64,000 nt of DNA from a bacterium (GTDB lineage Bacteria > Cyanobacteriota > Vampirovibrionia > Gastranaerophilales > JBAXKC01). Of this stretch, positions 49,272-62,185 are shown one piece after another. The stretch covers positions 64,001 to 128,000 of the forward strand of contig JBAXKC010000001.1 in assembly GCA_037137535.1 (NCBI GenBank), written 5' to 3'. The translations under genes and the position numbers were made by a program. Within the stretch, counting starts at the first letter, position 1. Each line of letters starts with the position of its first letter. The notes under the pieces were generated by a model. The model had not been told where the DNA came from and did not search any database. It saw only the letters and a program-made list of their open reading frames with translations.

Positions 49272-50609
49272 TTATTTTTTGCTTAAAGCCTTTTTATTGA
49301 TGCAAACAGGTTTTTTTCCGATAGAAATATAATCAAAGCCTCTTTTTAAAAGTCTTTCTGGATCGTATTGATTTCTTCCGTCAAAAATAACAGGCTTATT
49401 CAATAACTCTTTAATTTTTTCAAAATCAGGTCTTCTGAATTCATTCCATTCTGTTGCTAAAATCAAAGCATCCGAGTTTTCAAGTGCATCATAATTACTT
49501 TTAGCATATTCAATAGAATCACCAAAAATAGTTTTTGCTTCTTCCATTGCTTTAGGGTCATAAGCCTTAATTTTTGCTCCTGCAGCTAAAAGACTTTTAA
49601 CTATAGTAATTGCAGGTGCTTCTCTCATATCATTTGTTCTAGGCTTAAATGCAAGTCCCCATAAAGCAAAAGTCATGCCCTTCAAGTCACCTTGATAATA
49701 TTCAAATATTTTATTAATAAAGATTTCTCGTTGATTTTTATTTACGAAATCAACCGCTGAAAGGATTCTAGCCTCTATACCATAAGAGTCGGCAATACTT
49801 CTCAAGGCTTTCACATCTTTAGGAAAACATGATCCTCCGTAGCCAAGCCCTGGGAATAAGAATTGAGAACCTATTCTGCTGTCTGAACTCATTCCTATTC
49901 TTACAAATTCCGCATTTGCTCCGACTTGTTCGCAAAGATTAGCTATTTCATTGGCAAAAGAAATTTTTGTAGCAAGAAAAGAATTTGCCGCATACTTTGA
50001 CATTTCAGCAGATTTTACATCCATTACTATCACGGGATTTCCCGTTCTAAGAAAAGGGCTGTAAATCTCCTGCATAATCTCGGTTGCTTTTTGAGAATTT
50101 GAACCGATAATTACCCTGTCAGGCTTTAAAAAATCATCAATAGCCGCCCCTTGTTTTAAAAACTCAGGATTAGAAACGATATCAAAATCATGATGAGTAT
50201 TATTTCTGATAATTTCCGCAACTTTATCAGCGGTACCGACAGGAACAGTACTTTTATTGACGATAACTTTATAGCCGTTCATTGATTTTGCAATTTGTTC
50301 TGCAACATTGAAAACATAAGTCAAATCAGCAGAACCGTCATCCCCTTGAGGAGTGCCTACCGCAATAATACAAACCGCAGAATTTTTTACGGCTTCATCA
50401 ATATTATCAGTAAAAGACAATCTATTTTCTGCAATATTAACTTTTATAAGTTCATCTAAACCGGGTTCATATATAGGCACTATTCCTTGTCGAAGTGTTT
50501 TTATTTTCTCAAGATTATTATCTACACAAATAATATCGCTTCCCATTTCGGCAAGACAGGTGCCTGCGACTAAACCGACATAACCTGTGCCTATAACGCT
50601 AATTTTCAT
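49272..50609 (-). CDS. ugd: UDP-glucose 6-dehydrogenase
   Basis: [28 protein letters not shown] and GLAFKP motifs. Confidence 0.96.
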
Positions 50610-51553
50610 TTATTTGTCTCCCCAAGTTTTTTATCAAAATACTCTATTGTTTTTTTCAGTCCATCTTCTAATAAAACAGACGCTTCCCATCCTAATTTAC
50701 TCTTAGCAACTGAAATATCGGGTTTTCTTCTAACAGGATCATCCTGAGGTAATTCTTTATATATAATTTTTGAACTGCTTCCAGTTAATTTAATTATTCT
50801 TTCAGCAAACTCAACTATTTGTGTTTCTACCTGATTTCCTAAATTCACAGGTCCTAAAAATTCTTTTTCAGAATTCATCATTTTCACAATACCGCTGACC
50901 AAGTCAGAAACATAGCAGAACGACCTTGTCTGTGAACCGTCTCCATATACTGTAATGTCCTGATTTCTAAGAGCCTGAACTATAAAATTACTTACAACTC
51001 TACCGTCATTTTCAGCCATTCTGGGGCCATAAGTATTAAATATTCTTATGATTTTAGCTTCCACTCCATATTGACGGTTATAATCCATCATTAAAGTTTC
51101 AGCCGCACGTTTTCCTTCATCATAACAACTTCTGATACCGATAGGATTAACATTTCCCCAATAACTTTCCCTTTGAGGATGTTCTTTTGGATCGCCGTAA
51201 ACTTCTGAAGTTGATGCCTGTAAAATCCTTGCATTATTAGCTTTTGCAAGCTCTAACATATTAATGATACCAATTACACTGGTTTTCATTGTTTTTATAG
51301 GATCATATTGATAATGAACAGGCGAAGCCGGACAAGCCATGTTATAAATCTGATCAACTTCTAATGAAATAGAATCAATAACATCATGATTAATAAGCTC
51401 AAAATTCTTATGCTCCAGTAATTGAACCACGTTATCTTTAGAGCCTGTAAAAAAGTTATCTAAGCAGATTACATGATTTCCTTCACTTAAAAGTTTTTCG
51501 CAAAGATGAGAACCAATAAAACCTGCACCACCTGTTATTAAAATTCTATTCAT
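50606..51553 (-). CDS. UDP-glucuronate decarboxylase (UDP-xylose synthase)
   Basis: [45 protein letters not shown] and DDPVRRKPD motifs. Confidence 0.93.
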
Positions 51554-51635
51554 TATATTTAATCCTAAAAAATTATATCTGTTTATTGCATTATATCAAT
51601 TTGAATAACTTTATAGGTCATCAACAAACATTATT

Positions 51636-52607
51636 TTAATAATGCCTATTTTGTTCCCAATCCCATGCAGTCTTAACAATTTTTTCAATGCAATCATATT
51701 TTGGAGTCCAGCCAAGTTCTTTTATTGCTTTGTCATTTTTTGCAACTAACTCGTGCGGATCACCAAAACGTCTTTCTGCCATTTCTGTTTTTATTGTTTT
51801 CTGAGTAATTTTCTCTACTACCTTTATAACTTGATTGACAGAATACCCGTTACCTATACCAAGATTTATAGAATCAGAATCAGAGCCTGCTATAAGTTTT
51901 TCTAATGCGAGCTTATGAGCAATCGCAATATCATTAACATGGATATAATCTCGAACACATGTGCCATCATGTGTATCATAATCATTTCCAAAAATTTTAA
52001 GACTATCTGCTTGCCCTGAAGCAACTTGAAGAATTAATGGAATAAGATGAGTTTCGGGATAATGACTTTCGCCGATTTTAGCTTCTTCATCTGCTCCTGA
52101 TGCATTAAAATATCTTAAAGCCATGTATTTTAGCCCATAAGCCTTATCATAATCCTTAAGTATATTTTCAATCATCAGCTTTGTTCGACCGTAAACGTTT
52201 ATAGGGTCTTGAGGATGATCTTCATCAATTGGCGAATATAAAGGGGTTCCATAAGTTGCACAGGTAGAGGAGAAAACAATTCTCTTAACTTTTGCCTCAA
52301 TCATTGCATCTAAAAGATTTAACGTGCTTACTACATTATTATTATAATATTTCTGAGGATTTGTTTCTGACTCTCCAACATAACAACTTGCCGCAAAATG
52401 AATCACGGAATCAATTTTATATCTTTTAAAGATTAATTTTGCCTCATGTGCTTTGGATAAATCCGCAAGATGAAACTTATTCCCCATTATTGATTGGATA
52501 TTGCCATTTGACAAGTTGTCCACAACCAGAACATTGTAGCCAGCCCTTCTTAATTCAAGAGCACAATGACTTCCAATATAGCCTGCACCGCCGGTAATTA
52601 AAATCAT
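51636..52607 (-). CDS. galE: UDP-glucose 4-epimerase
   Basis: GGAGYIGSH, HFAA..VGES, YGRTK, LRYFN and DGTCVRDYIHV motifs. Confidence 0.95.
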   Translation of the reverse strand: MILITGGAGYIGSHCALELRRAGYNVLVVDNLSNGNIQSIMGNKFHLADLSKAHEAKLIFKRYKIDSVIHFAASCYVGESETNPQKYYNNNVVSTLNLLDAMIEAKVKRIVFSSTCATYGTPLYSPIDEDHPQDPINVYGRTKLMIENILKDYDKAYGLKYMALRYFNASGADEEAKIGESHYPETHLIPLILQVASGQADSLKIFGNDYDTHDGTCVRDYIHVNDIAIAHKLALEKLIAGSDSDSINLGIGNGYSVNQVIKVVEKITQKTIKTEMAERRFGDPHELVAKNDKAIKELGWTPKYDCIEKIVKTAWDWEQNRHY

Positions 52608-52758
52608 TTACTATCTCCATCCCGTTTATTAACTTTTTATTATAAAATTAAATAGTGATACCTAACTTTAAAATACCTATATATGATTTTATAAATACTA
52701 AATTCTTCATATAGCAGATTGGCTATATCTGGCAAGGCAGTTGAAAGGGCTATTAATT

Positions 52759-54846
52759 ATGACTTTTAGAAATAATTACAAACATTTACTTGAAAAAACA
52801 GGCGGACTTTTAGAAGTTGAGACAAAAATACCGATAAATGACAGCTTTGCATTAAGCCTTGTTTATACTCCGGGAGTCGGAAAATGCTGTCTTGATATAG
52901 AAAAAGATATTAATAAATCTTTTGAACTTACAAATAGGGGTAATTCAGTTGCCGTTATTTTTATTGAAAGTGATAAAAATAAACACATCGAAGCAAACCT
53001 GCCAAGATTAGAGCTTAAAGTTTTATTATATAAAGACATAGCTAAAGTTGATGCCTATCCGCTATTAGTTAAAAATGACGATATAAATAAATTATTAACC
53101 ACCATTAAAAGTATCGAGCCTTCTTTTTCCTGCATTGAAATAATTGCGGATAAAGAAATTACTGATTTACTGGAAAAAGAATTAGATAAAACGAATAAAA
53201 TCCCTGTTTTATACAGTTATCAGTCAGAAGAAATCGCTAAAACAGTAAAAGAATGTTCAGGCTTTGAAAATAATGATCAAGAAATAATAAATGCAGCTCT
53301 AATAAAAGCATTAATAAACTTAAAACCTCAAAATTATAAATATACTGACAACAATCAAATTAAAGAGTATTGTCAAAACGTTTTAAACGGGGAAATAAAA
53401 CCGAATAATCTCCTTTTAAGCCATTCATTAAAACTCTTCAGTGCCTTTTACGAATACTTTTTACATAAAATCACAGAAAACTTCAAATCAGAACCTACTC
53501 AAAAAATCAATAAATTAACAGCAGAATATGAAGATAGCTTATTTTTAAAACCAAATGCTTTATTTAAACAAACCAATAAAAATTACAAAATAGAAAAACA
53601 CTCTATCGAGGAAAACTCAATAGAATTGCATAAAAGAGCAAAAGGAGTAATAACCGTAGCTCCTAAAGTAGATTTAAACATGTCCGAAAACTATAAAACA
53701 CTTCTAAGTGCCGACTTCACAGAAAATATTGCCTCAGAAATAAATACTTTTCCTGAAAAGGTTTATGACTACACTTCAAAAAACAATCTTGTATTAATTA
53801 TAAGTGACGGTTCAGCTGTTTTAGGCTTTGGAAATATAGGAGCAGAAGCATCTATTCCCGTACTAGAGGGGAAATCAGCTTTATTAAAGAAACTGGGTGG
53901 AGTCAATGCTTTACCAATTGCATTAAACACTCAAAACCCGAATGAAATAGTCGATATAGTATGCAGTCTTTCACCGTCATTTGGAGGAATACACCTTGAA
54001 GACATTTCAGCTCCAAGATGTTTTGAAATAGAAAACAGAATAATGGAAAAACTTGACATGCCTGTATTCCATGACGACCAACATGGAACAGCGATAATTG
54101 TTTTAGCAGGTGTTATAAATGCTCTAAAAGTAGCGGGTAAAGACATCAAAGACATTAAAATCGTAATGACTGGAGCAGGAGCAGCCGCTCTTTCAGTGGC
54201 AGAACTGCTTATCCATAACGGTGCAAGAAATATAACCTTAAACGACATCTACGGACCAGTCTACAAAGGCAGAGCAAAAGGAATGAATCCTTATCTTGAT
54301 GCAATAGCCGAAAAGACAAATCCTGATAATTTAAAAGGTTCGTTAAAAGAAGTCATAAGAGGTGCTGACTTATTTATAGGCCTATCCGCAGCAAATATCC
54401 TCACAGCGGAAATGGTTAAATCAATGAATAATCGCTCTTGCGTATTTGCGCTTGCAAATCCGACACCTGAAATAATGCCTGAAATTGCAAAAGAAGCAGG
54501 GGCTTATATTGTCGCAACAGGAAGATCAGATTTCCATAACCAGATAAACAACTCTCTTGCTTTCCCGGGTGTCTTTAGAGGTGCGTTAGATGTTCGTGCA
54601 AAATGTATAAACAAAGAAATGAAATCAAACGCAGCAAAAGCTATTGCAAGTTTAATTCCAGATGAAAAATTAAGACCTGATTTAATAATTCCAAATGCTT
54701 TAGATTTAAGAGTTGCTCCCGCCGTTGCTAAAGCAATTGCAGAATCAGCAATAAAAACTAAAGTAGCATCCGTAATTAAAGAGCCTGATGATATTTATGA
54801 GAAACTTAAAAACTATTATTTTGAAGGTTCTTTAAGAAAAATTTAA
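52759..54846 (+). CDS. NAD(P)-dependent malic enzyme with duplicated, degenerate N-terminal malic-enzyme module
   Basis: C-terminal copy: SDGSAVLGFGNIG, EGK, LEDISAP, HDDQHGTA, GAGAAA, ALANP, NQINN. N-terminal copy: LSLVYTPGV. Likely start ATG 52759. Confidence 0.9.
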   Translation: MTFRNNYKHLLEKTGGLLEVETKIPINDSFALSLVYTPGVGKCCLDIEKDINKSFELTNRGNSVAVIFIESDKNKHIEANLPRLELKVLLYKDIAKVDAYPLLVKNDDINKLLTTIKSIEPSFSCIEIIADKEITDLLEKELDKTNKIPVLYSYQSEEIAKTVKECSGFENNDQEIINAALIKALINLKPQNYKYTDNNQIKEYCQNVLNGEIKPNNLLLSHSLKLFSAFYEYFLHKITENFKSEPTQKINKLTAEYEDSLFLKPNALFKQTNKNYKIEKHSIEENSIELHKRAKGVITVAPKVDLNMSENYKTLLSADFTENIASEINTFPEKVYDYTSKNNLVLIISDGSAVLGFGNIGAEASIPVLEGKSALLKKLGGVNALPIALNTQNPNEIVDIVCSLSPSFGGIHLEDISAPRCFEIENRIMEKLDMPVFHDDQHGTAIIVLAGVINALKVAGKDIKDIKIVMTGAGAAALSVAELLIHNGARNITLNDIYGPVYKGRAKGMNPYLDAIAEKTNPDNLKGSLKEVIRGADLFIGLSAANILTAEMVKSMNNRSCVFALANPTPEIMPEIAKEAGAYIVATGRSDFHNQINNSLAFPGVFRGALDVRAKCINKEMKSNAAKAIASLIPDEKLRPDLIIPNALDLRVAPAVAKAIAESAIKTKVASVIKEPDDIYEKLKNYYFEGSLRKI

Positions 54847-61598: not shown

Positions 61599-61901
61599 TT
61601 AAGCTATTTTTTTTATCTGATCTATTTCGTTTTTTTGTTTACTGTAAGTTTTATATAAATCATAGTTGCTTTGTAAATTCATCCAAAATTCTGGAGTTGT
61701 ACCCAAAAGATTAGCAAGTTTTAAAGCCATTATAGGAGTAATACCCCTTTTTTCATTATAAATATCACTTATAGTTTTAATCCCGACTTTTAAAAGTTCA
61801 GACAATTTTGCTTGAGTAATATTTAAAGGAACAGCGAACTCTTCTTTTAGAATTATTCCGGGATGAGTATAAGGTCTTAATTCCATTTTCAGATACTCCA
61901 T
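61599..61901 (-). CDS. higA: HigA family antitoxin
   Basis: HPGIILKEEF, HTH, RGITP.MALKL and PEFWMNLQ motifs. Confidence 0.93.
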   Translation of the reverse strand: MEYLKMELRPYTHPGIILKEEFAVPLNITQAKLSELLKVGIKTISDIYNEKRGITPIMALKLANLLGTTPEFWMNLQSNYDLYKTYSKQKNEIDQIKKIA

Positions 61902-62185
61902 TATTTATGGTAATCAACAATACAAACTTCTTCCGCATTTCCGTTGATAAATTTAAAAACAATTCTGTATTGGTTATTTATTCTAATACTACAATAATTT
62001 TTCAATTCCCCTTTTAGGTGCTCAAACCTATTCGCTGGAGGAACCAATAAATCCTGTTCTTTAAAAGCAGAATGCAGCATATCAAGTTTTCTTTTGCCAA
62101 TTTTACTTATTTCTACAGGAAATTTTTTTGAAATGCCACCGTCAAAAATAAAACTTGTTTCTTTGCATTTAAAACTTATTATCAT
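61901..62185 (-). CDS. higB: HigB (RelE-like) toxin
   Basis: MIISFKCKET, RKLDML, PPANRFEHLKG, SIRINNQYRIVF and VDYH motifs. Confidence 0.93.
   Translation of the reverse strand: MIISFKCKETSFIFDGGISKKFPVEISKIGKRKLDMLHSAFKEQDLLVPPANRFEHLKGELKNYCSIRINNQYRIVFKFINGNAEEVCIVDYHK

Follow-up and report, generated by a model that had tools for sequence, protein, structure and literature searches.

A fused two-copy malic enzyme from the Gastranaerophilales with a predicted one-chain active site formed by both copies

The 695-aa protein encoded at positions 52759–54846 of the window (the whole 64,000-nucleotide stretch of bacterial DNA that was analysed) consists of two small-type malic enzyme copies in one chain. 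Our data suggest that this head-to-tail fusion forms a pseudo-dimer within one chain and has a single active site, formed in cis, where Tyr36 of copy 1 would meet Lys372, Glu414, Asp415, Asp439/440 and the NAD(P) domain of copy 2. We give this reading, which leans on a structure model, a probability of about 0.78. The eroded copy 1 is likely to have survived because it lends its catalytic Tyr to the intact copy 2. Judged from sequence comparison, the fused design is real and conserved, and is a variant of known malic enzymes. No account of a malic enzyme with two copies was found in the literature searched, outside which lie subscription papers and supplements, so that a mention could be missed. 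Annotation pipelines label such proteins plain malic enzymes, and the fused design is thereby hidden.

The gene is a single open frame without internal stop, and a start at the in-frame TTG at 52741 would lengthen the protein by 6 aa. Its features are the following.

52759–54846, forward strand: fused two-copy malic enzyme gene, 695 aa.
52792–53223, forward strand: N-domain stub of copy 1 (aa 12–155) with beta-1, Tyr arm and scaffold strands, lacking metal and cofactor motifs.
52804–52827, forward strand: copy 1 beta-1 strand GLLEVETK, the dimer-axis strand in small malic enzymes (role taken from the available text of PMC11944484).
52864–52875, forward strand: YTPG with the putative catalytic Tyr36, the sole such motif in the protein.
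53011–53061, forward strand: decayed EGK helix of copy 1 (ELK, Lys87) to the DAYP strand.
53224–53589, forward strand: remnant of the copy 1 C-terminal helices plus linker, with the Rossmann domain deleted (third profile alignment, 92%; helical in the model).
53605–54768, forward strand: copy 2 (aa 283–670), complete catalytic and NAD(P)-binding body.
53623–53718, forward strand: first helix of copy 2, beta-1 (ELHKRAKG) and idle arm with LLSADF replacing YTPG.
53806–53874, forward strand: DGSAVLG loop and EGK with the putative catalytic Lys372.
53995–54087, forward strand: LEDI (Glu414, Asp415) and HDDQHG (Asp439, Asp440), which by homology to MaeB E149/D150/D174 would supply the metal and catalytic acids.
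54172–54552, forward strand: cofactor motifs GAGAAA, ANP, GRSD and NQINN.

A fused pseudo-dimer with catalytic motifs divided between its copies had been proposed from the letters alone, and this is borne out by the open reading frame, the matches to structure families and the motif positions. The N-terminal half (aa 15–156) matches solved small malic enzymes (1ww8, E 2e-17) and lacks DGTAVLG, LEDI, DDQHG and the Rossmann motifs, in line with its description as a decayed small-type enzyme that keeps LSLVYTPGV, the Tyr codon of which starts at 52864. The C-terminal half (aa 283–667) matches the same class (2a9f, E 2e-111) with all catalytic and Rossmann motifs and no YTPG, and the proposed replacement LLSADF is found at 53701–53718. 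The small-subunit traits are present and split, with Tyr36 in copy 1 only and the EGK Lys, LEDI, HDDQHG and Rossmann motifs all in copy 2, and both PF00390 and PF03949 score above cut-off. With its two copies the protein departs from the single unit of ~40–50 kDa, and the spacing from the Tyr to the DG motif is 314, compared to 33 in 78/78 single enzymes. A third profile alignment (probability 92%) identifies aa ~170–260 as a remnant of the copy 1 C-terminal helices, and the Rossmann domain is therefore the part that was cut out. The pattern E.K..L.K....VDAYP, said to be retained in copy 1, is indeed present, but its Lys87 is unconserved among eroded relatives (28/192, from hmmalign in a gappy region).

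An assembly artefact or a decaying pseudogene would be in keeping with the N-terminal half being more AT-rich (GC 0.276 compared to 0.364) and diverged. Against this, hundreds of relatives come from separate assemblies, where the layout recurs at identities of 72% or less. In another sample of the study, a contig covering 53385–53749 crosses the junction without any difference. This recurrence and the bridged junction rule out the misassembly that the sequence-only reading had named as a danger to its proposal, and the artefact or pseudogene explanation, whose chance is close to nil, is effectively refuted already. The frame is also open, and the gene is the sole malic enzyme locus found in its own genome (100% complete), both when the family was searched for and when four queries of small and large type were run with tblastn.

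UDP-sugar genes (dehydrogenase-like, decarboxylase-like and galE) occupy 49272–52607 on the reverse strand of the window, divergent from the malic enzyme gene. No functional link to the malic enzyme was found among the neighbours, which are galE, the other UDP-sugar genes on the opposite strand and a radical SAM gene, and a promoter and terminator scan gave counts at chance level (10 compared to 11.3, and 1 compared to 1.3). Two small adjoining ORFs (94 and 100 aa) at 61599–62185 on the reverse strand resemble by eye what we take to be a HigB/HigA-type toxin-antitoxin pair.

Protein searches (three), a profile search and a pair of genome searches together yielded 572 unique proteins. Of these, 327 contain two copies and are complete at both ends, forming 212 clusters at 90% identity, 64 at 70% and 38 at 60%. 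The searches were seeded with Tyr-bearing N-modules, and the set is for this reason biased; nor are its members independent of one another. The two-copy set comprises 135 full duplicates (807–892 aa) and 192 eroded forms, most of them 475–730 aa long, and both copies are intact in 0/327. Y[TS]PG is found in copy 1 of 127/135 full duplicates and 190/192 eroded forms, HDDQ in copy 2 of 132/135 and 189/192, respectively, and the two motifs occur together in one copy in 0/327. In 128 full duplicates, copy 2 has lost 7 of the 88 positions that are invariant in the 78 single enzymes, including G39, V40 and A41 of the Tyr arm, all three of which copy 1 retains at 95–100%. The split is not clean at this stage, since the copy 2 Tyr is still present in 127/135 full duplicates, in a remodelled YLxPG-type loop, and the full-length copy 1 retains E133, D134 and mostly K91, together with the GxG motif and a new conserved His.

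The named full duplicates are few and belong to Chloroflexota and NC10, and named eroded forms include Planctomycetota and Ca. Gastranaerophilales, the latter identical over the matched part to a locus of the same order. Within the window's order, 23/60 sampled genomes have a match, and 22/22 complete ORFs among these are fused; matches in family f3 of the order number 0/27 genomes. The best 29 loci in the rest of the phylum are all single-copy. A scan of genome contigs, which served as reference, gave 79 single-copy loci and one fused locus (L074). The latter is identical in its 482-aa sequence to L025; the record is labelled Gammaproteobacteria and the genome search points to the window's order. 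The ESM Atlas search returned malic enzyme clusters only, one of them with an 842-aa representative. A divergent clade of fused forms of 670–807 aa (P0017, P0253, P0254, P0257, P0259, P0264, P0273 and P0275; support 97–98) lies mostly on short contigs. Its source may be ciliates or other protists, in which small malic enzymes of bacterial kind are known (available text of PMC1413528 and PMC13198582).

The premise of the sequence-only reading, that small malic enzymes are dimers in which the catalytic Tyr comes from the partner chain, agrees with the available text of PMC7902834, PMC11944484 and bioRxiv 2020.07.07.192161, which also describe a complete site per chain for the large enzymes. The AlphaFold model of the 695-aa protein (pLDDT 89.7, pTM 0.91, 19 sequences) is confident across both halves and forms a compact single chain. 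No solved chain spans the whole model (best TM-score 0.56 of the query), and 387 residues of copy 2 can be superposed with 5cee at 1.8 Å. In a range-giving structural alignment, which reports first and last aligned residues only, 17/17 small or hybrid chains begin at model aa 275–286, and 31/31 large-type chains begin at aa 21–23 (rmsd 2.8–3.7 Å, 347–400 residues). The latter start corresponds to residue 96 of human ME2, presumably about 16 before the catalytic Tyr112. This suggests that in the model the arm of copy 1 occupies the place of the cis Tyr helix, in the copy 2 site. The model of a 482-aa relative (pLDDT 93.4, pTM 0.92) shows in Foldseek an rmsd of 3.3–4.3 Å to the 6 large-type chains listed and of about 11 Å to small-type chains including their own arm. 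Structure prediction had been named as a check of where the copy 1 Tyr lies, and as far as aligned end residues in a one-chain model can tell, it places the copy 1 arm where large-type enzymes have their Tyr helix.

AlphaFold could have taken the dimer geometry over from the solved structures that the protein resembles, and a model of one chain is compatible with swapping between chains. Two fused chains might then pair in a division of labour in trans, so that copy 1 of one completes copy 2 of the other. The available text of PMC11944484 describes small malic enzymes as entangled dimers, and folding such a pair within one chain may be hard; the linker at aa ~260–280 also holds blocks of lower pLDDT (58–68). 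We regard such pairing as unlikely, and favour the site in cis. The proposal of one active site built from both halves fits both the family-wide motif split and the model.

Copy 1 could also be a folding scaffold or a regulator with a dispensable Tyr, in which case the enzyme would be Tyr-free or would catalyse a partial reaction, e.g. oxaloacetate decarboxylation. Such a role is suggested by the P0247 cluster (5 proteins, 860–892 aa), where the Tyr is absent from both copies and copy 2 is otherwise intact. It is also suggested by the full-length copy 1, in which D158 is replaced by N in 120/125 and D159 by H in 123/125 while GxG is retained. These substitutions hint at a remodelled pocket, and its conservation recalls the non-catalytic regulatory beta-1 subunit of Cleome NAD-ME (available text of bioRxiv 2021.06.16.448762). 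The Tyr of copy 1 is, however, retained in 191/192 eroded forms while the adjoining catalytic positions of copy 1 vanish, and the remodelled pocket is deleted in the 695-aa protein, which makes a dispensable Tyr decidedly improbable. P0261 (727 aa) has lost both the Tyr and DDQ. This protein and the P0247 cluster represent either altered chemistry or dead paralogues.

The relatives can be arranged in a length series, from full duplicates of 807–892 aa through ~700-aa forms, which include the 695-aa protein, to ~480-aa forms in Gastranaerophilales. Copy 1 is found full length, with the Rossmann domain deleted as in the 695-aa protein, or trimmed to a stub of ~130 aa. The copy 2 Tyr is mostly gone after the Rossmann deletion (present in 6/192 eroded forms). 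The ~480-aa forms lack the idle arm of copy 2, and their copy 2 spacing from beta-1 to DG drops from 60 to 25; beta-1 and the DAYP-like strand of copy 1 persist. In a catalytic-core tree of 39 rows, rooted on two full duplicates, the short forms occur among forms of ~670–710 aa, within a clade of 13 rows (98), within one of 6 rows (99) and on two further branches. Their position in separate clades among the ~700-aa forms makes it likely that shortening happened repeatedly, and the root of this tree suggests that erosion ran from long to short.

The reverse arrangement is represented by a single cluster of three motif-reversed full duplicates (P0274, P0409 and P0410, 848 aa), which have an ACT-like start followed by an active Tyr-less copy and then a dead copy with YTPG. 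In the tree P0274 groups with other single enzymes, and a separate origin of the mirror order is therefore likely. One common origin of all fused forms is weakly supported, with an SH-aLRT of 81 for 24 rows that include the unfused L146 pair and L147 and leave P0299 and P0360 outside. P0299 (524 aa) and P0360 (535 aa) have a long Tyr-to-DG spacing and possibly represent further origins. The L146 pair consists of two adjoining unfused small malic enzyme genes (1364–2578 and 2587–3831 of L146, reverse strand, genome G172) with 5 nt from stop to start. The first looks intact (YNPG), and the second retains YSPG, EGK and DDQHG and has lost GRSD/NQxN and the LEDI Glu. The pair is possibly a heterodimer stage preceding fusion, in a genome with 9% contamination.

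The course that we propose starts with duplication and fusion of a small malic enzyme and loss of the metal and cofactor motifs from copy 1. Relatives represent copy 1 at full length, in the Rossmann-deleted form and as the ~130-aa stub, and the arm of copy 2, which would face the dead site, loses its motif and in the end disappears; up to this point the steps can be read from the sequences. The copy 1 arm is predicted to thread into the copy 2 site within one chain, where, by homology, malate would be converted to pyruvate, CO2 and NAD(P)H. This path would have been taken from long to short several times, and would be a route to a one-chain site distinct from that of the large-type enzymes.

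It is tempting to speculate further that the family is a stepwise living record of how an obligate entangled homodimer becomes a true monomer through duplication, fusion, the killing of one site and a deletion that leaves a Tyr-donor stub of ~130 aa, a course taken at least twice, in mirror order. As the parent dimer is entangled, and as knots elsewhere are produced by duplication and fusion (available text of PMC2848546), the fused chain may by analogy be knotted, a natural knot that arose through fusion; in the full-length stage the dead site may serve as a metabolite sensor. We hold this extended picture as tentative, possible rather than probable. The main text of the knot survey PMC11184937, as available, has no malic or malate term.

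The sequence-only reading had also placed the protein as an intermediate on the way to large-subunit malic enzymes, which it took to be proposed products of duplication and fusion. No such proposal was found in the literature searched, and in the available text of PMC11944484 the cis site of large enzymes is instead explained by short insertions that bring in a Tyr and a Lys, which speaks against an intermediate. An 8-sequence large-type profile aligned to 57 small-type proteins as one colinear copy, with a second-alignment probability of 0.2%, compared to 99.9% and 75.7% for the profiles of ~700-aa and ~500-aa fused forms. An old duplication could have eroded past detection by a profile of 8 sequences. 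The abstract of Alvarez et al. 2018 reportedly speaks of gained cassettes in the origin of large-type enzymes. The Tyr-to-DG spacing is 33 in single enzymes (78/78), 50–52 in large-type (8/8) and 146–455 in fused enzymes, and the large-type have ~87 additional residues ahead of the Tyr, which are absent in fused forms. What could favour an extant intermediate is that, going by the model, both arrive at a cis Tyr helix in the same position, and that a tree joining the large-type to the clade of the 695-aa protein was not rejected (p-AU 0.79); the control, joining them to unfused enzymes, was not rejected either (p-AU 0.92), so that the trees carry no information on this point. These trees used 45/89 rows, N-copies, both P0274 halves, the duplicate L074 and similar rows being left out, and the large-type sit on a long branch, with the free quick tree worse than both constrained trees. 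With a colinear profile, distinct spacing and an unrejected control tree, the intermediate claim is unsupported, and we consider it very improbable. The better reading is that the fused design is a second route to a one-chain site, convergent with the large-type.

If true, the malic enzyme classes described so far (small, large and hybrid) would be joined by a fourth layout, and the passage from homodimer to monomer by duplication, fusion and erosion would become testable on natural stages of 840, 700, 570 and 480 aa. The large-type insertions would be a different solution to the same problem, available for side-by-side comparison, and a one-chain malic enzyme of ~480 aa with an asymmetric site would, if true, be a handy engineering scaffold.

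The fused protein can in some respects be compared to each of the known systems. The small prokaryotic enzymes (Ca. Phytoplasma AYWB 5cee, T. maritima TM0542 1vl6, P. horikoshii PH1275 1ww8/2dvm and Entamoeba 3nv9) have the same catalytic residues and a composite site; they form homodimers that have two sites and receive the Tyr in trans, whereas the fused protein has both halves in one chain and one dead site, parts of which are being deleted. In the large-subunit enzymes (human ME1-3, maize, E. coli MaeA 6ags and Mtb MEZ 6urf) Tyr, Lys and metal ligands all come from one chain, as predicted by the model for the fused protein. Unlike the fused protein, they are single copies with short insertions, YTPTV and DGER motifs and a domain A before the Tyr, and identity is 26%; the 695-aa protein scores 117.6 bits with the large-type NCBIfam model NF010052, compared to a cut-off of 326. 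The hybrid MaeB/DME/TME enzymes likewise join a catalytic unit of the small type to an enzyme domain that is catalytically dead, and their length is similar. Their partner is a phosphotransacetylase sensor and they stay arm-swapped dimers, whereas the 695-aa protein ends ~25 aa past the malic enzyme unit, has no PTA family match and scores 409 bits with NF009501, compared to 1178. Cleome NAD-ME, in the available text of the preprint cited above, also has a dead malic enzyme paralogue beside an active one; these are large-type, regulatory and on separate chains, and the dead subunit has lost the Tyr that in the fused protein would be donated by the dead copy.
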